From contig CAXXKT010000001.1 of the NCBI GenBank assembly GCA_963662405.2, positions 1,568,001 to 1,632,000 on the forward strand: a stretch of 64,000 bases of DNA. The letters are read 5' to 3'. Every line of letters begins with the position of its first letter. Position 1 is the stretch's first letter. The DNA comes from Syntrophales bacterium. GTDB lineage: Bacteria > Desulfobacterota > Syntrophia > Syntrophales > UBA2210. This document shows positions 32,441 to 51,044 of the stretch, piece by piece. Under the pieces are notes generated by a model that saw only the letters and a program-made list of their open reading frames with translations, ran no database searches and was not told the DNA's origin. Position numbers and translations under genes: made by a program.

Positions 32441-32754
32441 GGCCGTGTTCTCTCCCGATAATTTATCTATAATCGTAAACCTATAGTATATGTTGCAAAA
32501 TAATTCTACAAAAATCTCCCTGAGTCTGAAATTGCCCCGAAGAAAGGTCGTTTTGTCTGTGTTTGGCTGATATGGACTATTCACATCCGGTCGATTTGCT
32601 GAGTGGGGATCCGAATGTATCGCCGGCAGGGCGCCGTTTCTGTCCCATGATGCCACTCTGCGGCAGAAAGGACAGGATCTCAGCAACCAGGCCGTAATTG
32701 TGGAAGGGGGAACATCCTTGACAGGGCCTTGACCGGAGGGGTATAAGCGTATTT

Positions 32755-32910
32755 TCAATGTACGGGTGGATGTGAGGAAGAGGGGTGCAATTCCCCCGCT
32801 GCCCCGCAGCCGTGAAGGGAGCGAACACCCACATAAGCCACTGTTCCGAGATAATCGGGGCGGGAAGGCGGGTTAGTAGGTCGCCCTGAGCCGGAAGACC
32901 GGTCCGCTCG
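32755..32910 (+). ncRNA. Cobalamin riboswitch
   Basis: AGGAAGAGGGGTGCAATTCCCCCGCTGCCCCGCAGCCGTGA...AGCCACTG...GGGAAGGC...GAGCCGGAAGACC; upstream of btu/cob genes. Confidence 0.92.
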
Positions 32911-33030
32911 CAGATCCTCGAGGGAGGCGTATCGCGAAGTGGTTGTATTTTGTTGTGACCCCGGGAGGTATATCGCCGTTTTGCCCTGTCGCGATGGTGC
33001 CATGTCCTCGTCCTGTTGCAAGGATGTGTC

Positions 33031-34056
33031 ATGGAAAAGTTGGTTGTTACCCCGTCGAGGATAGCCAGGGTCAGTGTGCTTCTGGCCGTTTTTTTTGTGA
33101 TCGTGGGGGGGGGCTCTGTTTTGACGGGTACCGCCGGTGTCGGTGCCGTTCGGGTTATGAATGGTATCGTATCTTGGTGGCGAGACGGTTCTCTTGCACT
33201 CGATCCCTCTGAACGGACCATCCTCTTTGAGATCCGCCTGCAGCGGGTCATCTTTGCCGGGATCGTCGGCGCGGCCCTCTCCACCGCCGGTGTCGTATTC
33301 CAGGCACTCCTCCGGAATCCCCTGGCTGATCCCTATATCCTGGGGGTGTCTGGGGGGGGCGCAGTGGGGGCGATTATCGGTATCCTCATCGGGGCGGGGG
33401 CCGTTCCCTTCGGCATCCCCGCGCTGGCCTTTCTCGGGGCGATCCTGACGGTAGCCCTGGTTTTCATGATCGGAAGCAGGGAAGGGGGCCTCGACTCCAA
33501 CACCCTCCTCCTTGCCGGGGTCATCGTCAACGCCTTCTTTTCGGCCGTTATCATGTTCTTCATGTCCACCAGTTCCAGCGCTGAGCTGCACACCATCACC
33601 TTTTGGCTGATGGGGGACATGGGTATGGCAGATGGCGGGAAGAACATGCTCATGATTTTTCCTCTCGCCGGGGGAGGCGTTCTCGTATATCGCTATGCTC
33701 GGTCTCTGAATCTGATCGTGAGCGGTGAAGAGACCGCCATGCAACTCGGCGTGGATGTGAGGCGCGTAAAGATTATTTTGTTTGTCGTTGCCTCATTGAT
33801 TACCGCTGTCGCCGTCTCGTTTGCCGGGATGATCGGATTCGTCGGTCTCGTGATCCCCCACATGATGAGGATGGTGCTGGGGACGGATCACCGGCTCCTG
33901 CTCCCGGCGTCCTTGCTCTTCGGGGCGTCGTTCATGGTGATTGCCGATACGGTGGCACGGGTGATATTTGCCGGCATGGAACTGCCGGTCGGCGTGATTA
34001 CCGCCCTGTGCGGGGCACCCTACTTTGTCGTTCTCCTGAGAAAGAGGAGGCTATAA
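33031..34056 (+). CDS. btuC: Cobalamin ABC permease (FecCD family)
   Basis: EIRLQR, RNPLADPYILGVSGG, GMIGFVGLVIPH; riboswitch context. Confidence 0.88.
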   Translation: MEKLVVTPSRIARVSVLLAVFFVIVGGGSVLTGTAGVGAVRVMNGIVSWWRDGSLALDPSERTILFEIRLQRVIFAGIVGAALSTAGVVFQALLRNPLADPYILGVSGGGAVGAIIGILIGAGAVPFGIPALAFLGAILTVALVFMIGSREGGLDSNTLLLAGVIVNAFFSAVIMFFMSTSSSAELHTITFWLMGDMGMADGGKNMLMIFPLAGGGVLVYRYARSLNLIVSGEETAMQLGVDVRRVKIILFVVASLITAVAVSFAGMIGFVGLVIPHMMRMVLGTDHRLLLPASLLFGASFMVIADTVARVIFAGMELPVGVITALCGAPYFVVLLRKRRL

Positions 34057-34058
34057 CC

Positions 34059-34904
34059 GTGTCAATTATCACCGTGACGGATGTCGATTTCCGGTACAAT
34101 GATATCCTGGCATTGCAGGCTGTCTCCTTCGATGTTCGCCGGGGGGAGTTTCTCGGGGTCATCGGTCCCAACGGTTCCGGAAAGACTACCCTCATCCGGG
34201 TGCTCGACGGCATCCTTGCGCCGGAGAGGGGTGTGGTCAGCGTGCACGACACTGCGATCCGGGGGATGAAGCGGAGAGATATTGCCCGGGTGATCGCTGT
34301 TGTCCCTCAGGAGTCCCCCATGGTTTTCCCCTTCAGGGTCATCGAGGTCGTCATGATGGGACGATCGCCGCACCTGGGGATGCTCCGATTTGAGGGGGAA
34401 AGCGACCTCCGGATCGTCGAGAAGGCGATGGAGATGACGGATACGACTCCCCTGGCGGATCGCAGCATGAACGGCCTGAGCGGCGGGGAACGACAGCGGG
34501 TCCTGATAGCGAGAGCCCTGGCACAGGAGCCGGAGGTAATCCTCCTCGATGAGCCGACCGCCTTCCTGGATATACGGCATCAGGTGGAATTGTTTGATCT
34601 CATGAAGGCCCTCAACAGAGAGCGGGAACTGACCGTTCTCGCCGTTACCCACGATATAAATCTTGCGGCATCATATTGTGACCGGGTTCTTTTGTTAAAA
34701 GAAGGAAATATCCACCGGATGGGGACGCCGGGAGAGGTCGTCACGGAGACGAACATCAGAACGGTATATGAGACCGATGTCCTTGTCGATGCCAATCCGT
34801 TAAGCGGGCTGCCGCGCGTGACGCTCGTAGGCCCGGACCTGTCGCACGAGGAAAGGATCGTATCTCGAGGGACACGGCAGGTCTCTATGGAACGGAACCG
34901 ATAG
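34059..34904 (+). CDS. btuD: Cobalamin ABC ATPase
   Basis: GPNGSGKTT, LSGGERQR, LLDEPT. Confidence 0.88.
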   Translation: MSIITVTDVDFRYNDILALQAVSFDVRRGEFLGVIGPNGSGKTTLIRVLDGILAPERGVVSVHDTAIRGMKRRDIARVIAVVPQESPMVFPFRVIEVVMMGRSPHLGMLRFEGESDLRIVEKAMEMTDTTPLADRSMNGLSGGERQRVLIARALAQEPEVILLDEPTAFLDIRHQVELFDLMKALNRERELTVLAVTHDINLAASYCDRVLLLKEGNIHRMGTPGEVVTETNIRTVYETDVLVDANPLSGLPRVTLVGPDLSHEERIVSRGTRQVSMERNR

Positions 34905-35863
34905 TGACCGTTATGCATACAGGTGAAGGATATCTCTCCGGTGAGCTCCAAGAACGTTTTGCGGCGGCCGTCGCCCGGAACCGGGGTGGGGGACTGCTCT
35001 TCTCCGGCGGTCTGGACTCGGTCCTGGTAGGTGCCTGTGCGGGGACCTGCACGGCCGTCTCCGTACACCTTGCCTCATACGGAGGGGATCGATGGTATGC
35101 GGAAAGAGGGGCGACCTTTTTGGGACTGGACCACCACCCGGTGACCGTTACGGTGGAGGAGGCCCTCTCGGTCGTACCGGAAGTTGTCGGGATCATGAAG
35201 AGTTTCGATCCGGTCATCCCCAACGATATCACCGTCTACCTCGGGCTCCGGCGGGCGAAGGGCATGGGGATCGCGAAGGTAATGACGGGGGACGGGAGTG
35301 ACGAACTCTTTGCGGGGTACGATTTTATGCAGAAGATACCGGATTTGACGGGGTATATGACTCGGATGCACGCCGCCATGCGTTTCAGCTCCAACACCCT
35401 TGGAGATTCTCTCGGAATCGTGATACGGCAGCCGTTTCTGGATGCGGAGTTTTTCGAATTCAGCCGGGAAATCGGACTTGATCTGAAGATCAGGGATGAA
35501 GGGGGAAAACGATGGGGGAAATGGATCCTCCGCAAGGCCTTTGCCGGTGTGCTCCCGCCGGAGATCCTCTGGCAGACCAAGAGACCCCTCGAATACGGTT
35601 CCGGCATGACACGACTGCGGGGGATCATCGAAAAGCGGGTGACGGATGAGGAGTTTGAGGAGGGGAAGCGTGCCTTTCCCGTCCGATTCTGGAACAAGCA
35701 GCATTATTACTATTACCGTCTCTACCGGGAGGTGGTGGGGAAGATCCCGCCCCCCGAAGATAATGAGAAAGAATGTGACTGCTGCGGAGCGGGAATGCCC
35801 CGAGGGGCTTTTCACTGCAGGGTCTGTGGAGATGTTGTTGCATGGAACGAACGGAAGAGCTAA
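34904..35863 (+). CDS. Asparagine synthase C-terminal-domain protein (no glutaminase domain) with C-terminal Zn ribbon
   Basis: LFSGGLDS PP-loop, TGDGSDELFAGY, PFLD, KWILRKAF; CDCCG...CRVCG. Confidence 0.82.
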   Translation: MTVMHTGEGYLSGELQERFAAAVARNRGGGLLFSGGLDSVLVGACAGTCTAVSVHLASYGGDRWYAERGATFLGLDHHPVTVTVEEALSVVPEVVGIMKSFDPVIPNDITVYLGLRRAKGMGIAKVMTGDGSDELFAGYDFMQKIPDLTGYMTRMHAAMRFSSNTLGDSLGIVIRQPFLDAEFFEFSREIGLDLKIRDEGGKRWGKWILRKAFAGVLPPEILWQTKRPLEYGSGMTRLRGIIEKRVTDEEFEEGKRAFPVRFWNKQHYYYYRLYREVVGKIPPPEDNEKECDCCGAGMPRGAFHCRVCGDVVAWNERKS

Positions 35864-36567
35864 AGGCCTTTGTCTCATGGAGCGGTGGCAAGGACGCCGC
35901 TCTGTCCTGCTGGCGGGCGCTGAAAGAGGGATACCGGATTACCCACCTCTTGAACATGATCGACGAGGATGGTCACCATTCACGATCACACCATCTCAGG
36001 GCTGAAATCCTGAGATTGCAGGGAGAGGCGATGGGGGTCCCGGTTGTTCAGGTCCCCAGCTCGTGGGAGACATATGAAGAGAGATTTAAGAGCGCCCTTG
36101 CCGACCTCAAACAGACAGGGGTGAAGGCGGGGGTCTTCGGTGATATCGACCTGGAAGAACACCGGCAGTGGGTTGAACGGGTCAGCAAAGAATCGGGAGT
36201 GGATGCCCTCCTGCCGCTCTGGGGGGAATCGACGCGGGAGGACCTGCTGGAGGAACTGATCGCTGCGGGTTTTGAAGCGGTTGTCGTCGCGGTCAGGAGG
36301 GATCTTGTGGGACCGGAGTGGCTGGGGCGGCGGATAGATCAGGACTTTATCCACGATATCAAGGGGGTAAAGGGCGTCGATATCTGTGGTGAAGGAGGGG
36401 AATACCATACCGTTATCCTGTCGGCCCCCTTTTTCAAAGGGAGGATCAGTATCGAAGAAACTGAGACACTGTTTCATGAAGACAACATCTTCCTTGAGAT
36501 CACGCGGTGTGCCTTGGCAGGAGGGGAAGAGGCACCGACAGGGCGCCCAGTACAACGAGCGGGGTGA
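35842..36567 (+). CDS. Diphthine-ammonia ligase (Dph6/MJ0570)-family PP-loop ATPase
   Basis: SWSGGKDA, VFGDIDL, PLW, DICGEGGEYHT. Confidence 0.85.
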   Translation: MERTEELKAFVSWSGGKDAALSCWRALKEGYRITHLLNMIDEDGHHSRSHHLRAEILRLQGEAMGVPVVQVPSSWETYEERFKSALADLKQTGVKAGVFGDIDLEEHRQWVERVSKESGVDALLPLWGESTREDLLEELIAAGFEAVVVAVRRDLVGPEWLGRRIDQDFIHDIKGVKGVDICGEGGEYHTVILSAPFFKGRISIEETETLFHEDNIFLEITRCALAGGEEAPTGRPVQRAG

Positions 36568-36571
36568 TGAC

Positions 36572-37087
36572 ATGATGGTATTTGTAACGGGCGGTGCACG
36601 GAGCGGAAAGAGTACCTTCGCCCAGAATCTCGGAGAATCACGTCCGGGGAGAAGGCTCTTTATCGCGACCGCCGAGGCCTTTGACGAAGAGATGGAACGA
36701 AGGATCAAAATACACCGCGAACAGCGGGGGGACCGGTGGGACACCTGTGAAGAGGCGATCGATCTGGGCGGTGTTATCGGATCGGCCCGAGGAGAATATG
36801 AGACCATCCTGATCGATTGTCTGACCGTCTGGATGTCCAACCTGATGCACCGATATGAAGGAAGGGATAAAGAAATGTCGCGTATGACCGATGCCTTCTT
36901 TCAAGCGCTGGATCCGTTTCCGGGGGTCGCGATCGTGGTTTCCAATGAGGTCGGAATGGGAATTGTTCCGGACAATAGGCTTGCGCGGGAATACCGGGAT
37001 CTCCTCGGCTTTCTCAACCAGCGGGCCGCGCGAATCGCGGACGAGGTATACCTCCTCTGTTCCGGGATACCCGTGAAGGTCAAATAA
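36572..37087 (+). CDS. cobU: Adenosylcobinamide kinase/phosphate guanylyltransferase
   Basis: GGARSGKS, IATA, LIDCLTVW, VSNEVGMG. Confidence 0.95.
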   Translation: MMVFVTGGARSGKSTFAQNLGESRPGRRLFIATAEAFDEEMERRIKIHREQRGDRWDTCEEAIDLGGVIGSARGEYETILIDCLTVWMSNLMHRYEGRDKEMSRMTDAFFQALDPFPGVAIVVSNEVGMGIVPDNRLAREYRDLLGFLNQRAARIADEVYLLCSGIPVKVK

Positions 37088-37102
37088 TAGACAGGAGAAA
37101 CG

Positions 37103-38161
37103 ATGCGAAGATTGCAGTCTGTCCTGAACCGTATCCGCCCTCTGGACGAAAGATTCCTGGAACGGGCGCAGCAAAAGATCGACAGCCTCACCAAGCCGCG
37201 GGGGTCTCTCGGCAGGCTGGAAGAGTGTGCCCGGCGGTACGCGGCCATCAGGGAGGATCTGGCCCCTGCCGTTAACAGAAAAGTAATCTTCACCTTTGCC
37301 GGTGATCACGGGATTGTCGAGGAGGGGGTGAGTGCCTATCCGGGGCAGGTGACCGTCCAGATGGTCTTGAACATGCTTGCCGGTGGCGCCGGCGTCAATG
37401 CCCTCGCCCGTCATGTAGGGGCGGAGGTTGTCGTCGTGGATATCGGTGTCAATCATGACTTTGTCCCGCCCGGGAATTTGATCGTCAGGAAGGTGGGATA
37501 CGGCACGCGGAACTTTACAAAGGGACCCGCCATGACCCGTGACGAGGCCCTCCGTTCGATCCGGGTCGGTATCGATCTGGCCGATGAATATGCGAAGAAA
37601 GGGATGGATATCGCGGGGACAGGGGAGATGGGGATCGGGAACACGACCCCTTCCAGTGCCATCCTGGCCGTGTTGGGGGGGATCGAACCCGAGGCAGTGA
37701 CGGGGCGGGGAACCGGGATCGATGATCGAACACTCGGGGTGAAGACGAGCGTTATCGAAAGGGCCATCGCCGTCAACCGTCCTGACCCCGGAGATCCCCT
37801 CGATGTCCTTGCCCGGGTGGGCGGTTTTGAGATCGGGGGAATAACGGGGCTGATTATCGGTTGTGCCGCCCGTCGGATACCGGTGGTGGTGGACGGTTTC
37901 ATATCGACGGCGGGTGCCCTGATAGCCACGCGGATGAGCCCGGTAATCAACGAATACCTGTTTTACTCGCATCTCTCCGCCGAGGCGGGACACCGCCAGA
38001 TGCTCGAAGCGATAGGGGGGCGACCGATTCTGGATCTCGGTATGAAGCTGGGGGAGGGAACGGGGGCGGCGCTGGCGATGTCGGTTATCGAGGCATCGGT
38101 AAAGGTCATGAATGAGATGGCTACCTTTGCGTCGGCAGGCGTGGATACGGAGACGGTATAG
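37103..38161 (+). CDS. cobT: Nicotinate-nucleotide-DMB phosphoribosyltransferase
   Basis: [34 protein letters not shown]. Confidence 0.96.
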
Positions 38162-38180: not shown

Positions 38181-38925
38181 ATGATTCAGCGATTCCTGAC
38201 CGCACTGCGGTTTCTGACGATCATACCGGTGCCGGGGGGACAAATCCTCAGTGATGAGGATATGGGGAGGTCGATGGCCCTGTTCCCCCTGATCGGTCTC
38301 CTGATCGGTCTGTTCCTGGCGGGGGGCAGGTATGTCCTGGGGATGATTTTCCCCGCCCCCCTGGCGGATATCCTCGTGATCGCCGTCCTGGTGGTGGTGA
38401 CCGGAGCCCTGCACCTGGACGGTGTTGCCGATACGATCGATGGTCTGGCGGGCGGAACGGACCGGGAACGGACCCTTGCCATTATGAGGGACAGCCGAAT
38501 CGGTTCATTCGGAGTCGTGGGGCTGGTGATCATCCTCATGCTGAAGGTGGTGGCCCTGATAGAGATCCCCGATGGGATGAAGGGAAGGGCCCTCATGCTC
38601 ATGCCTGTCTTGGGGAGGTGGTCGGCGGTTCAACTGGCTGCGTGGCTCGATTATGCCAGGATGGGAGAGGGAACGGGTCGTGCCTTTGCCCGATCCACGG
38701 GGAGAGGGGAATCCATCATCTCCACCGGCATCGCTGCCAGTGATCGCTGCGGGGATCTTCGGTATGGAGGGTATGGTTATGTTTCTTGGCATCGCCGTAC
38801 TGACTCTGTGCCTCGGATTGTTTTTCAGGAGGCGGATCGGCGGGGTGACCGGGGATGTTATGGGCGCGGCTTGTGAGATGAACGAGGTTGCCGTTTTGAT
38901 ACTGATATGTGCGTTCTTTATGTAA
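38181..38925 (+). CDS. cobS: Cobalamin synthase (apparent +1 frameshift at ~38737)
   Basis: TGALHLDGVADTIDG, IMRDSRIG; C-terminus GGVTGDVMGA in the shifted frame. Confidence 0.92.
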
Positions 38926-38953: not shown

Positions 38954-39571
38954 GTGGAAACACCGACACGGATGTACCTGATACGGCACGGCCAGGTAAT
39001 GAATTATGAGAAATGTGCCTACAATGGCCACCGCGATGTGGATATCACCGAGCATGGCGTCCGGCAGATGGAAGCGGTGGCGGAGAGACTCAGGGGTAAA
39101 CCCCTGGCGGGGATTTACTGCAGCGATCTGATCAGGGCACGAAGGGGAGCCGATATCATTGCGGCTCCCCACGGCCTGACCCCCCGATCCCTTCCCGCCC
39201 TGCGGGAACTGGATGTCAAGCTGTGGGAGGGCCTGAATGCGGATGGTGTGGAGGAAAGGTTCCCGGGGGCCTTTGACGCCTGGATGAAACAGGGAATCGA
39301 CTACCGCATCCCCGGAGGAGAACGCGTCCGGGATCTGGTGAACAGGGTGATTCCTGCTCACCGGGAAATTTTGAATACACACAGGAGAGAGTCCGTTGTC
39401 CTGGTGGTACATGGAGGGGTCAATCGGGTGATCCTGGCGGATGCCCTGGGGGCCGGGTTCGATCGTCTCTATTCGATCGAGCAGGATTACGGTTGTATGA
39501 ACATTATCGATTATTTTGCCGACTATGCGGTCGTCAAGCTCGTCAACAAACGACTGCTCGACGGAGAGTGA
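38954..39571 (+). CDS. cobC: Alpha-ribazole phosphatase (histidine phosphatase)
   Basis: LIRHG, SDLIRA, LRE, VHGGV; cob operon context. Confidence 0.85.
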   Translation: METPTRMYLIRHGQVMNYEKCAYNGHRDVDITEHGVRQMEAVAERLRGKPLAGIYCSDLIRARRGADIIAAPHGLTPRSLPALRELDVKLWEGLNADGVEERFPGAFDAWMKQGIDYRIPGGERVRDLVNRVIPAHREILNTHRRESVVLVVHGGVNRVILADALGAGFDRLYSIEQDYGCMNIIDYFADYAVVKLVNKRLLDGE

Positions 39572-39577
39572 GGAAGA

Positions 39578-40493
39578 GTGCTTATCCGTACATCGCTCCG
39601 ATATCCGGGCCTCCTTTCGATGCTGCTCCTTGCGATCTTCTCGTTTCTGCGGGAGGCCGACGCCGTTCTGTACACCGACGAGGTGGGAAGGGATGTTGCC
39701 GTTTCTTCCCCCCCCCGACGGATCGTTTCTCTCGCCCCCAGCATCACCGAGACCCTCTTTGCCCTCGGCCTGGATCGGGAGATCGTCGGGGTGACCAGGC
39801 TGAGCGACTACCCAGAGGCGGCTCGATCGAAACCGCGGGTGGGTACTTTCATCAACATCTCTCTCGAACGGGTTGTTTCTCTGAACCCCGATCTGGTGAT
39901 CGGGACTGCCGATGGAAACCGGAAGGAGACGGTCTTACAACTGGAACGGGTCGGTATCCCCGTCTATGTCGTCAACCCGAAGAGCTGTGAAGAGATATTC
40001 CATACGATTCTGGATATCGGCAAGATAACGGGGCGGGAGAAAAGGGCGGAGGAACTCGTCACCGATCTGCGGGGAAGGATCGATCAGATTGCCTCGTCCT
40101 TGGAGGGCCTGAAAAGGCCCCGTGTCTTTCTTCAAATAGGGGTCAGTCCGATTATTACCGTCGGGAGCGGTACCCTCCATAATGAGCTGATACTCCGTGC
40201 CGGCGGGGGGAATGTCTACGATGGAGTAGCGGTGTCTTACCCTCGGTGTGGGATTGAGGATGTCATTGCCAGAAAGCCGGACATTATTATCCTTTCGTCC
40301 ATGAAGGAGGGGGGGAGATTTTCTCGAGGTCAGGGACGAGTGGAAGAGATGGAAGACTATCCCCGCAGTCAGCCATGAGAGGATTTACATTATCGATACG
40401 GACCTGATCGATCACGCATCACCCCGGATCGTCGACGGGTTGGAGAGGATGGCCGAGCTTATCCACCCGGAAGTCACCTGGAAGAAACGGTAG
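39578..40493 (+). CDS. btuF: Cobalamin-binding periplasmic protein (apparent +1 frameshift in G7 at 40309-40315)
   Basis: RIVSLAPSITETLFALG; shifted frame continues IPAV...SPRIVDGLE to TAG at 40493. Confidence 0.88.
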
Positions 40494-40508: not shown

Positions 40509-41135
40509 ATGTTAGATTACTTTTATCAGGGAGGACCGGTTATGTACCCGCTCCTCGTCTGCTCCCTCGTATCCCTCACGATTGTTATAGAGAGGACCAT
40601 CTTCTGGATACGGGAGAAGCGGCGGCGTGATACAGAAATCCTGGACCGCTTTATGTCTTTTCTTGAGAGGGGGGAACTGGAAGCGGCGAAGACCCTGGTG
40701 ATGGACTGTCACGATCCCGTTGTCCGGGTTTTGGTATGTGGTATTGTCCACCGTGAGTTTTCACTCAGAGACGCCCTTCGGATGAGTGCCGATCAGGAGA
40801 TGGCGCGGATGAGACGATATCTTCCTATTCTCGACACGATGATAACCCTCGCCCCCCTGCTTGGTATCCTGGGAACCGTTACGGGGATCATATATTCTTT
40901 CAATATGCTCGGGACCGTGGGTGTAGAGAATCCGATGATAATAACGGCGGGAATCGGTCAGGCCCTCCTCACCACCGCTTTCGGCCTGACGATAGCGATC
41001 TTCAGTCTCATTCCGTACAATTATTTTCAGTCCAGGGTTGAGAAGACCGCGCAGGATATGGAGAAATACGGAACGACTCTTGAGATTCTCTTTGAAAGGA
41101 TTCAAAAAACGGAAAACGGCAAGCCTGGTCGGTAA
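40509..41135 (+). CDS. exbB: MotA/TolQ/ExbB proton channel
   Basis: GGPVMYPL, APLLGILGTVTGII, ALLTTAFGL. Confidence 0.9.
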   Translation: MLDYFYQGGPVMYPLLVCSLVSLTIVIERTIFWIREKRRRDTEILDRFMSFLERGELEAAKTLVMDCHDPVVRVLVCGIVHREFSLRDALRMSADQEMARMRRYLPILDTMITLAPLLGILGTVTGIIYSFNMLGTVGVENPMIITAGIGQALLTTAFGLTIAIFSLIPYNYFQSRVEKTAQDMEKYGTTLEILFERIQKTENGKPGR

Positions 41136-41141
41136 GTCCTT

Positions 41142-41591
41142 ATGAAGATTACACGAAAAGAGAATGGTCGGGCGCGGATCGAGATGGTACCACTCATTGA
41201 TGTGGTTTTTCTCCTCCTTGTGGCGTTCATATTTTTTGCCATGTCGATGACCGTATACCGGGGAATCCCCGTCGATCTGCCGGTCTCAGCGGCCTCCCTT
41301 GTTGAAGGTGAGGACTTTTTAGAGATCACGGTAAAGAACGATGGAATGGCGTATTTCAATGGGGAAGGGGTCGACCTCCAGGGCCTTCGATTGAGACTTG
41401 CCCGCCTCCACCGTGCATCTCCGGAGATACGGATTGTTGTCGCGGGCGACCGGGAGGCACCGTACGTATCGATCATATCGGTGATCGATGTGGTCAAAAG
41501 GGCCGGCATCACCGGGTTATCGTTGCGGACGGGGTTTCCCGATGAGGAACCGGACATGGTGTCGAGACAGACCGGGCGAGTCCGAGAATGA
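41142..41591 (+). CDS. exbD: ExbD/TolR
   Basis: IEMVPLIDVVFLLLVAF. Confidence 0.9.
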   Translation: MKITRKENGRARIEMVPLIDVVFLLLVAFIFFAMSMTVYRGIPVDLPVSAASLVEGEDFLEITVKNDGMAYFNGEGVDLQGLRLRLARLHRASPEIRIVVAGDREAPYVSIISVIDVVKRAGITGLSLRTGFPDEEPDMVSRQTGRVRE

Positions 41592-42361
41592 TGCAGGGGA
41601 GAGATTTTGCAATTGCGGCTGTTCTTGCCGTTGCGCTTCACTGCGGCATCGCGCTGGTGCGTATGCCGGTATCCGGGGCACCGCCACTTCTTACCAATCA
41701 GACGATCGCCATTTCTTTTCTTTCCCATGACTCACTGCCGGATGTCTTAGAGGATACAGCCCATGAAAATGAAGATAATGCGGCAAAGAGATGCCCTCCG
41801 AAAACAGCGGCGAAACACGATACGGTGAGGAAACAGGAACCGGTAACGGAAAGAGTGGCGCAGCAGATCGCGGAAAAGGGAGAAAAAAAAGCAGAAAAGA
41901 CGATCGCAAAGGAGGAGAAACAACGAAAACCGGTGGAACAGGCCGGGCCGGTGGAAAAAGACAGTATGCTCCTGGTTGAGACTCACGAAAGATCAGATCC
42001 TTCATTCGAAGGTCCGATCACGAAAACATCTCACCACGCACCGCCCCTACAAGAGACGAAAACGGCTCAACACATGCAATCGGAATCGGTTGCACCTCAT
42101 TACAGAAGCGCCCCGCCTCCGAAATACCCTGCGATCGCGCGCAGGAGAGGGTATGAAGGCGAGGTCCTTCTTGCCGTGGTAGTTTCGATTGATGGTACGG
42201 TTTCGAAAGTGACGGTGAAAAAGCCCTCCGGGCATTCTCTGCTGGATCGTGCCGCTGTGGAGGCTGTTAGCCGGTGGCGATTCGAGCCGGCCCGGCGGAT
42301 GGGCGTTTCCGTTTCATTGGAAGTGGATATTCCGGTGCGATTTGTGTTAGAAACGCCGTAG
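41588..42361 (+). CDS. tonB: TonB energy transducer
   Basis: N-terminal TM with His, PKYPAIARRRGYEGEV, SGHSLLDRAA, WRFEPA. Confidence 0.9.
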   Translation: MMQGRDFAIAAVLAVALHCGIALVRMPVSGAPPLLTNQTIAISFLSHDSLPDVLEDTAHENEDNAAKRCPPKTAAKHDTVRKQEPVTERVAQQIAEKGEKKAEKTIAKEEKQRKPVEQAGPVEKDSMLLVETHERSDPSFEGPITKTSHHAPPLQETKTAQHMQSESVAPHYRSAPPPKYPAIARRRGYEGEVLLAVVVSIDGTVSKVTVKKPSGHSLLDRAAVEAVSRWRFEPARRMGVSVSLEVDIPVRFVLETP

Positions 42362-50957: not shown

Positions 50958-51044
50958 GCCGAAGTGGCGGAATTGGTAGACGCGCTAGGTTCAGGGTCTA
51001 GTGGGCGTACGCCTGTCCGGGTTCAAATCCCGGCTTCGGCACCA
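50958..51044 (+). tRNA. tRNA-Leu(CAG)
   Basis: GCCGAAG acceptor stem pairing CTTCGGC-ACCA, D-loop GGAATTGGTAGAC, anticodon loop TTCAGGG, long variable arm, GGTTCAAATCC. Confidence 0.96.

Follow-up and report, generated by a model that had tools for sequence, protein, structure and literature searches.

We describe here a family of asparagine synthase-like proteins (hereinafter ASL) that is linked to vitamin B12 metabolism. It is represented in a 64,000-nucleotide stretch of DNA (hereinafter the window) from a Syntrophales bacterium (GenBank assembly GCA_963662405.2, contig CAXXKT010000001.1, positions 1,568,001 to 1,632,000) by a gene (34904..35863, plus strand) encoding an AsnB-fold ATP pyrophosphatase that lacks a glutaminase domain and carries a C-terminal Zn ribbon. 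The gene belongs to a riboswitch-controlled operon for B12 uptake and salvage, in a bacterium that is a pure B12 scavenger, and is followed by a gene (35842..36567, plus strand) for a PP-loop ATPase of the DUF71-B12 subgroup, a paralogue of Dph6. In the bacterial subclade, ASL very probably serves cobamide metabolism in some way; as to the reaction, the genomic context gives about even chances that it repairs scavenged cobamides by ATP- and ammonia-dependent re-amidation of hydrolyzed corrin side chains, so that the protein is a candidate cobamide side-chain amide ligase. What is new here is the ASL family and its predicted B12 role; the DUF71 half of the gene pair is an existing prediction. 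In an open-access library that covers few subscription journals, we found no description of ASL as a B12-linked family, of its fusion with the cobalamin-processing protein CblC, or of enzymatic repair of B12 side chains.

The ASL family and its genomic context

The ASL protein of the window is 319 amino acids (aa) long if translated from the GTG at 34904 and 316 aa from the ATG at 34913, the probable start, which gives the same length as that of a 97% identical relative (P0001). It matches only PF00733 (Asn_synthase, E 6.6e-39), scores 137 of 499 bits on NF006949, lacks the glutaminase domain and ends in a CxxC..CxxC pattern; the Zn ribbon is present in 77 of the 80 ASL proteins from the loci analyzed below. 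The AlphaFold model (predicted local distance difference test score, pLDDT, 89) matches the synthetase domains of AsnB, human asparagine synthetase (ASNS), beta-lactam synthetase and CarA. With AsnB and ASNS (PDB 1ct9 and 6gq3; PF00733), ASL shares the fold of the synthetase domain (template modeling, TM, score 0.72), the PP-loop, the catalytic Lys and the equivalents of Asp367 and Glu368: the ATP-site signature S34-G-G-x-D38 and K226 (ASNS Lys466) are found in all 81 sequences compared, and D133 and E134 in 80 of the 81. In contrast, 79 of these sequences have Asp in place of ASNS Glu364 (D130 in the window protein), the positions aligned with Asp400 and Arg403 are occupied by Met (M159) and Ser (S162) in ASL, and the TTIRAS stretch of Escherichia coli AsnB corresponds to PAIPND in the window protein. 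The human Glu364 variants E364A and E364Q are inactive, according to the available part of PMC6748925.

Phylogenetic analysis of the synthetase domain, with the Zn ribbon excluded, yielded the same partition with two methods. In the FastTree tree (34 partial rows dropped, 5 rows unclassed), 116 Zn-ribbon sequences and 22 glutaminase-bearing AsnB sequences lie on opposite sides of one branch with 100% support, and in an IQ-TREE analysis, 30 Zn-ribbon proteins are separated from 12 glutaminase-bearing AsnB proteins by a single 99% branch (both IQ-TREE trees made are quick searches). A full-length AsnB-type protein encoded elsewhere in the same genome groups on the AsnB side. Judged from the sequences, ASL is a distinct glutaminase-less, Zn-ribbon family that retains the adenylation site, has lost residues of the aspartate site and is separate from true AsnB, from which it differs also in its B12 context.

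This context was assessed by a scan of GTDB genomes that returned 256 ASL relatives, of which the best 80 loci (two of them from one assembly) were kept; these come from Desulfobacterota, Omnitrophota, Planctomycetota, Nitrospirota, Aerophobetes, Clostridia and other groups, and the nearest named ones, with 67-72% identity, belong to Syntrophaceae/Syntrophales. In 73 of the 80 loci, ASL shares its strand with a strictly defined B12 marker gene; these loci span many phyla, and their gene order is shuffled. The frequent companions are DUF71 (68 loci, directly downstream in 59), cobT (46), btuB (45), cobU (40), cbiB (34) and cobA (31). Among the seven loci without a marker, ASL is immediately preceded by a riboswitch in one and lies less than 1.2 kb from a contig edge in five. 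A cobalamin riboswitch was detected upstream in 31 of the 33 loci scanned, which were picked for their long upstream flanks, and in four of these cases ASL is the first gene behind the riboswitch. As a control, the same kind of BLAST search gave a B12 label to none of 50 loci of ordinary full-length AsnB. The neighborhood test that a preliminary description of this DNA had put forward, namely co-occurrence with btu and cob genes and B12 riboswitches, is thus borne out by these counts. The two genes are not an obligate pair: ASL has no DUF71 companion in 12 of the 80 loci and in 2 of the 16 ASL-bearing genomes in a class-level sample of 201 genomes (47 with cobQ, 58 with cbiB, 45 with PF01902). 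No ASL relatives were found in viral contigs or, at E 1e-30, in PLSDB, and there is no RNA holder among the ASL holders listed.

Domain fusions and eukaryotic members

When 1.84 billion representatives were searched with a profile (8000 candidates, lengths 345-1101 aa), members of the ASL family came up from bacteria, archaea and eukaryotes. In 20 named proteins from oomycetes, ranging from Saprolegniales to Pythium and Phytophthora, ASL follows an extra N-terminal region that aligns across the 17 rows tested. This region scores above the cut-off of PF16690 (MMACHC/CblC) in the proteins of Thraustotheca (P0311, 44.8 bits) and Achlya (P0313, 27.4 bits), its profile matches MMACHC in PDB (E 7e-6), and its predicted structure has a TM score of 0.78 to an MMACHC model; furthermore, the available part of the PMC8085122 supplement lists Thraustotheca clavata OQS04116.1, which is P0311, as CblC. 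From the Pfam and PDB profile matches, the predicted structure and this listing, the N-terminal domain of the oomycete ASL members is assigned as CblC/MMACHC, the protein that removes the upper ligand of cobalamin (PMC8085122, available part). The word "asparagine" is absent from the accessible main text and supplement of that paper, and the open-access literature yielded no side-chain repair partner of CblC.

Among the best 120 of 209 matches, there are 44 named fungal proteins, all from non-Dikarya, which we take to be Mortierellomycota, Umbelopsis, Kickxellomycotina or chytrids. The family is also present in Acytostelium, Galdieria and Pyropia. The all-non-Dikarya distribution of the fungal members matches B12 use as given in the available part of PMC8085122, where B12 enzymes are reported for non-Dikarya fungi, Oomycota, Amoebozoa and red algae. 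The eukaryotic subclade retains an Arg where the window ASL has a Pro.

In four archaeal members (P0274, P0392, P0402 and P0245), ASL is fused to a CobY-like nucleotidyltransferase domain; the best-scoring NTP-transferase families for these domains, TIGR00454 (125-138 of 174.7 bits) and NF045495 (93-110 of 250), are matched below their cut-offs. Another protein (P0399) combines ASL with a Cys-rich small domain (PF04071), presumably one that belongs to archaeal B12 genes. Fusion of ASL with DUF71 was not found among three longer matches, which is weak evidence.

The predicted reaction and its alternatives

To our knowledge, eukaryotes cannot build B12 and have no nucleotide-loop assembly, so that cobyric acid would be unusable for them. 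Because the eukaryotic holders cannot build B12, and because cbiB was not found in 8 of the 16 ASL genomes of the class sample, which are 92-99% complete, the substrate of ASL, supposedly a corrinoid, would be a complete cobamide or cobinamide. In N-type ATP pyrophosphatases, an acid is activated by adenylation and joined with ammonia or an amine (PMC6594144, available part). Hydrolysis of its side-chain amides turns B12 into mono- to heptacarboxylic acids, which are inactive (PMC9822362, available part). By analogy with other N-type ATP pyrophosphatases, ASL would form an acyl-adenylate that is then attacked by free ammonia, the donor expected because the protein has no glutaminase domain; the Zn ribbon may help to bind the substrate or stabilize the fold. 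Beta-lactam synthetase, CarA and lasso-peptide cyclases show that AsnB synthetase domains have been recruited before to act on other carboxylates, although all three differ from ASL in context and are of lower similarity, and the solved chains of the first two are about 500 aa long compared to about 320 aa. Repair appears to be the simplest interpretation because a B12-regulated candidate amide ligase persists without ring synthesis or cbiB and is fused to the cobalamin-processing CblC.

Alternatively, ASL could perform some other ATP-dependent B12-handling chemistry, such as opening of the c-lactam or c-lactone, conjugation of an amine, or modification of a B12-linked peptide or protein, and its subclades may differ in this respect. 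This appears unlikely, but the strong B12 context does not by itself name a reaction, AsnB-fold lasso-peptide cyclases match ASL weakly, and many archaeal members have no B12 neighbors. A CbpB-like radical S-adenosylmethionine (SAM) peptide maturase is encoded in 9 of the 80 loci (L075:8051-9424 and eight more; only the L075 protein was scanned, scoring above the TIGR04163 cut-off), a further point in favor, but is missing from the other 71, and the fusions with CblC and BtuF-like domains indicate a small corrinoid molecule instead. A second small radical SAM family is found in eight ASL loci.

CbiP (CobQ) catalyzes ATP-dependent amidation of corrin propionates, a chemistry similar to that proposed for ASL, and is a common component of salvage operons that lack ring synthesis genes. 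It differs from ASL in belonging to an unrelated sequence family, using glutamine and acting on a precursor. ASL, with or without DUF71, might be a non-orthologous stand-in that works on incomplete precursors, for example, by turning cobyrinate a,c-diamide into the cobyric acid that CbiB needs, and leaves finished cobamides untouched. We consider this rather unlikely. A full cobQ gene is scarce among the 67 distinct ASL genomes (5 of 67; 7 duplicate records merged by coordinates) and absent from all 80 loci, and among the cbiB-positive genomes of the class sample, it is found in 2 of 8 with ASL vs 37 of 50 without (p 0.012). In two genomes (G009 and G012), ASL-DUF71 ends a de novo cbiK-C-L-D-ET-FG-H operon and cobQ was not found, and altogether cobQ was not seen in four of the five ASL genomes that carry cbiD. 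Yet in the remaining one (G266), cbiD lies about 5 kb from ASL on the same contig and a true cobQ is present elsewhere; 62 of the 67 ASL genomes have no cbiD; half of the ASL genomes in the class sample have no CbiB to consume the product; and the eukaryotic members could not use it. In addition, these are mostly fragmented metagenome-assembled genomes, and related genomes are not independent observations. Upstream of the cobA and ASL operon in one locus, there is a stand-alone CobQ-type glutaminase domain (L094:2533-3204, PF07685), a point in favor of the stand-in and a possible ammonia source; G043 contains a partial match similar to this domain.

Among the cobQ-positive, ASL-negative genomes of the class sample, 20 of 45 lack cbiD. 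The cbiA hits (17 of 51) were left unused; some may presumably be the siroheme amidase DsrN. In one genus of this sample (g24, 8 genomes), cbiB is present, and cobQ, CbiZ, DUF71 and ASL were not found. ASL is mainly a gene of scavengers that replaces neither CbiB nor, strictly, CbiP: the former role is rejected because cbiB shares the locus with ASL in 34 of the 80 cases, and G266, together with confounding by genomes that do not produce B12, weakens the latter.

The same 34 loci bear on a further possibility, similarly improbable in our assessment, that the pair remodels the nucleotide loop, with DUF71-B12 cleaving it as a replacement for CbiZ, the role proposed for it in 2012, and ASL re-ligating an amine, for example, aminopropanol-phosphate, in place of CbiB. 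Amines are used by AsnB-fold enzymes such as beta-lactam synthetase, the CobY-like fusions put ASL close to loop assembly, CbiZ was not found in 50 of the 59 distinct ASL genomes surveyed for it (65 genome records, 6 duplicates), and an anti-correlation between DUF71-B12 and bacterial CbiZ is reported in the available part of PMC3541065. Nevertheless, CbiZ is present in the other nine, including the window genome, and shares its locus with ASL in 7 of 80 cases, and loop remodeling would have little purpose in the eukaryotic proteins fused to CblC. Finally, that ASL is a plain ammonia-dependent asparagine synthetase found in B12 operons by chance is highly improbable: AsnB and ASNS are its closest solved folds and databases commonly label the family asparagine synthase, but the Glu364 equivalent is Asp, those of Asp400 and Arg403 are lost, the genome encodes a separate full-length AsnB-type protein, and neither the control by B12 riboswitches nor the fusion with CblC would be accounted for.

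Several observations weigh against the re-amidation of scavenged cobamides by ASL. The substrate and reaction are predicted from context. In a metagenome scan that sampled more distant members (86 of the 103 unlabelled neighboring open reading frames were sent to Pfam), only 8 of the 29 loci have B12 neighbors; 7 are single-gene contigs, and 14 are multi-gene loci without B12 neighbors, several of them in archaeal housekeeping contexts with Rpb6, Alba and deoxyhypusine synthase. Within the oomycete fusions, PF16690 is below the cut-off or absent in seven of the nine named proteins scanned. Animals use B12 and CblC, and no animal proteins are among the best 120 of the 209 ASL matches of 345-1101 aa. 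The CblC fusions and the fungal members belong to a subclade (DPMELRN) other than that of the window protein (DPAIPND), with 30% identity, so that the substrates of the eukaryotic members and of the window protein may differ. The conserved D133 and E134 are equivalent to the ASNS residues Asp367 and Glu368, which have been modeled on the amino group of aspartyl-AMP, and an amino-acid-like substrate is accordingly possible. Lastly, cbiP is only weakly avoided once known cbiD holders are removed, the cobQ comparison then being 2 of 8 vs 14 of 27 (p 0.24), where cbiD status is known only for the cobQ-positive genomes, 13 cobQ-negative ones are kept and kin are not independent.

The DUF71-B12 gene, the operon and the host genome

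The product of the second gene (241 aa) matches PF01902 (183 bits, E 6.3e-54) and contains an SWSGGKD motif. It is unlikely to be a true Dph6 diphthine-ammonia ligase: His189 occupies the position of Dph6 Glu188, as does a His in all 63 aligned rows, and the score on archaeal Dph6 TIGR03679 (139 bits) is short of the 197.3-bit cut-off. By these features, it belongs to the DUF71-B12 subgroup of COG2102/PF01902 predicted in 2012 by de Crecy-Lagard et al. (PMC3541065), in which, according to the available part of the paper, 75 of 102 genes adjoin B12 transporters and His replaces Glu188; like these, the window gene is bacterial and located beside btu genes. It differs in its motif, GEGGEYH, with Gly where the published ENGE[FY]H has Asn (Asn is found in 14 of the 63 rows tallied), and in co-occurring with CbiZ here and in eight more genomes. 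The preliminary description had taken both genes to serve an uncharacterized step of corrinoid side-chain amidation, repair or remodeling; the B12 link is strong, given the neighborhoods, riboswitches and fusions, and the Dph6-like half was not new. PMC3541065 reports fusions of GAT-II-AsnB with DUF71 in a few archaea and, in its accessible portion, describes no glutaminase-less AsnB-like partner; the word "asparagine" is absent from its three supplements. In the accessible parts of PMC8305020 and PMC5481537, DUF71 is named only in the reference lists.

The 2012 proposal, made without experiment, was that DUF71-B12 functions in pseudo-B12 salvage in place of CbiZ, with a strict anti-correlation to bacterial CbiZ (PMC3541065, available part). 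This is weakened by the co-occurrence of CbiZ with the ASL type of locus in 9 of 59 genomes, even if most genomes have no CbiZ, and a pure replacement fits poorly here because the window genome has CbiZ; the assignment to the subgroup at the sequence level is unaffected. We predict DUF71-B12 to be another ATP-dependent enzyme acting on corrinoids; in the simplest case, its target would be a different side chain or the nucleotide loop.

In five loci (L084:4962-6398, L048:10828, L062:9315, L158:7044 and L164:3923), signal-less BtuF-like domains are fused to DUF71, as in L084, or lie beside DUF71 or ASL, and are likely to be cytoplasmic corrinoid binders. Two further DUF71/BtuF fusions (P0121 and P0123) may be read-through artefacts. 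Tandem divergent DUF71 pairs, which would fit with more than one side-chain-specific enzyme, are present in three loci (L119, L121 and L123) of genomes without ASL, in two of them after cobU.

The operon of the window, entirely on the plus strand, is headed by a cobalamin riboswitch (32751..32921; RF00174, 76.2 bits, E 5.2e-17) and continues with genes for a BtuC-like ATP-binding cassette (ABC) permease (33031..34056; PF01032, top NCBIfam match BtuC NF007081, under the cut-off) and a BtuD-like ABC ATPase (34008..34904, with the probable start at the GTG at 34059; PF00005, top NCBIfam match the corrinoid ABC ATPase NF007082, under the cut-off). ASL and DUF71-B12 come next, followed by cobU (36572..37087; PF02283, NF004469 above the cut-off), cobT (37103..38161; TIGR03160 above the cut-off), cobS (38181..38925; TIGR00317), a gene for a CobC-like alpha-ribazole phosphatase (38954..39571; TIGR03162, 148 bits, slightly under the cut-off), btuF (39578..40493; PF01497, top NCBIfam match BtuF NF002894), and exbB, exbD and tonB (40509..42361; PF01618, PF02472 and PF03544). 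A tRNA gene (RF00005) is located at 50958-51041 of the window. The salvage operon with its riboswitch, and within it an AsnB-like Zn-ribbon gene and a Dph6-family gene that overlap each other and abut btuD and cobU, were correctly recognized in the preliminary description: ASL overlaps the btuD stop by 1 nucleotide (nt) and the DUF71-B12 gene by 22 nt, and cobU starts 4 nt past the latter. An independent short-read contig (run X2, possibly the source sample) spans 32600-37628 with 0 differences. The frameshifts in cobS (38739) and btuF (40309/40310) are single extra assembly bases that are absent from short-read contigs of three runs, so these genes are not pseudogenes. In two relatives (L018 and L134), btuB and a second riboswitch are inserted between btuD and ASL, where the window genome has neither.

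The genome is 100% complete and contains five cobalamin riboswitch matches and six B12-binding domains. Pfam annotation detected no cbiP, cbiB or cbiZ inside the operon, as noted in the preliminary description, and for cbiP, the absence extends to the whole genome, where cobQ/cbiP, cbiA, cbiD, cbiK, cbiC, cbiET and cbiH were not found and there is no match to TIGR00313. Conversely, contig C2 carries another riboswitch locus (L013, G000:C2:230644-237500), which contains tandem riboswitches and genes for a BtuB-like receptor, a BtuF-CbiZ fusion (702 aa, with an apparent signal peptide), CbiB and CobD; cobA is located away from this locus. The lack of cbiB and cbiZ in the operon is therefore no gap, and the bacterium is a scavenger that already owns the CbiZ-CbiB remodeling route. 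Long CbiZ frames of a similar size (670-710 aa) are found in G002, G009, G012 and G180. The separate full-length AsnB-type gene (L015:8570-15984, G000:C1 at about 2.11 Mb) lies directly behind genes for a corrinoid protein, MttB-family methyltransferases and a pterin-binding methyltransferase, surroundings that are unexpected for asparagine synthesis. A metE-like gene (L014, G000:C3:162786-163784) is preceded by two cobalamin riboswitches.

Taken in its broadest form, the proposal is that ASL is a B12 damage-repair enzyme spread across the three domains of life, joined with CblC in one polypeptide in oomycetes, lost along with B12 use in Dikarya, and complemented by DUF71-B12 for other side chains; this we advance tentatively, as somewhat less probable than not. 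B12 is scarce, costly and shared in the environment, and is inactivated by side-chain hydrolysis (PMC9822362, available part). If the prediction is correct, a repair step would be added to cobamide salvage, with a larger usable B12 pool in sediments and soils; a family now labeled asparagine synthase would gain a function; and fungi, amoebae, red algae and oomycetes would gain a new B12 gene.

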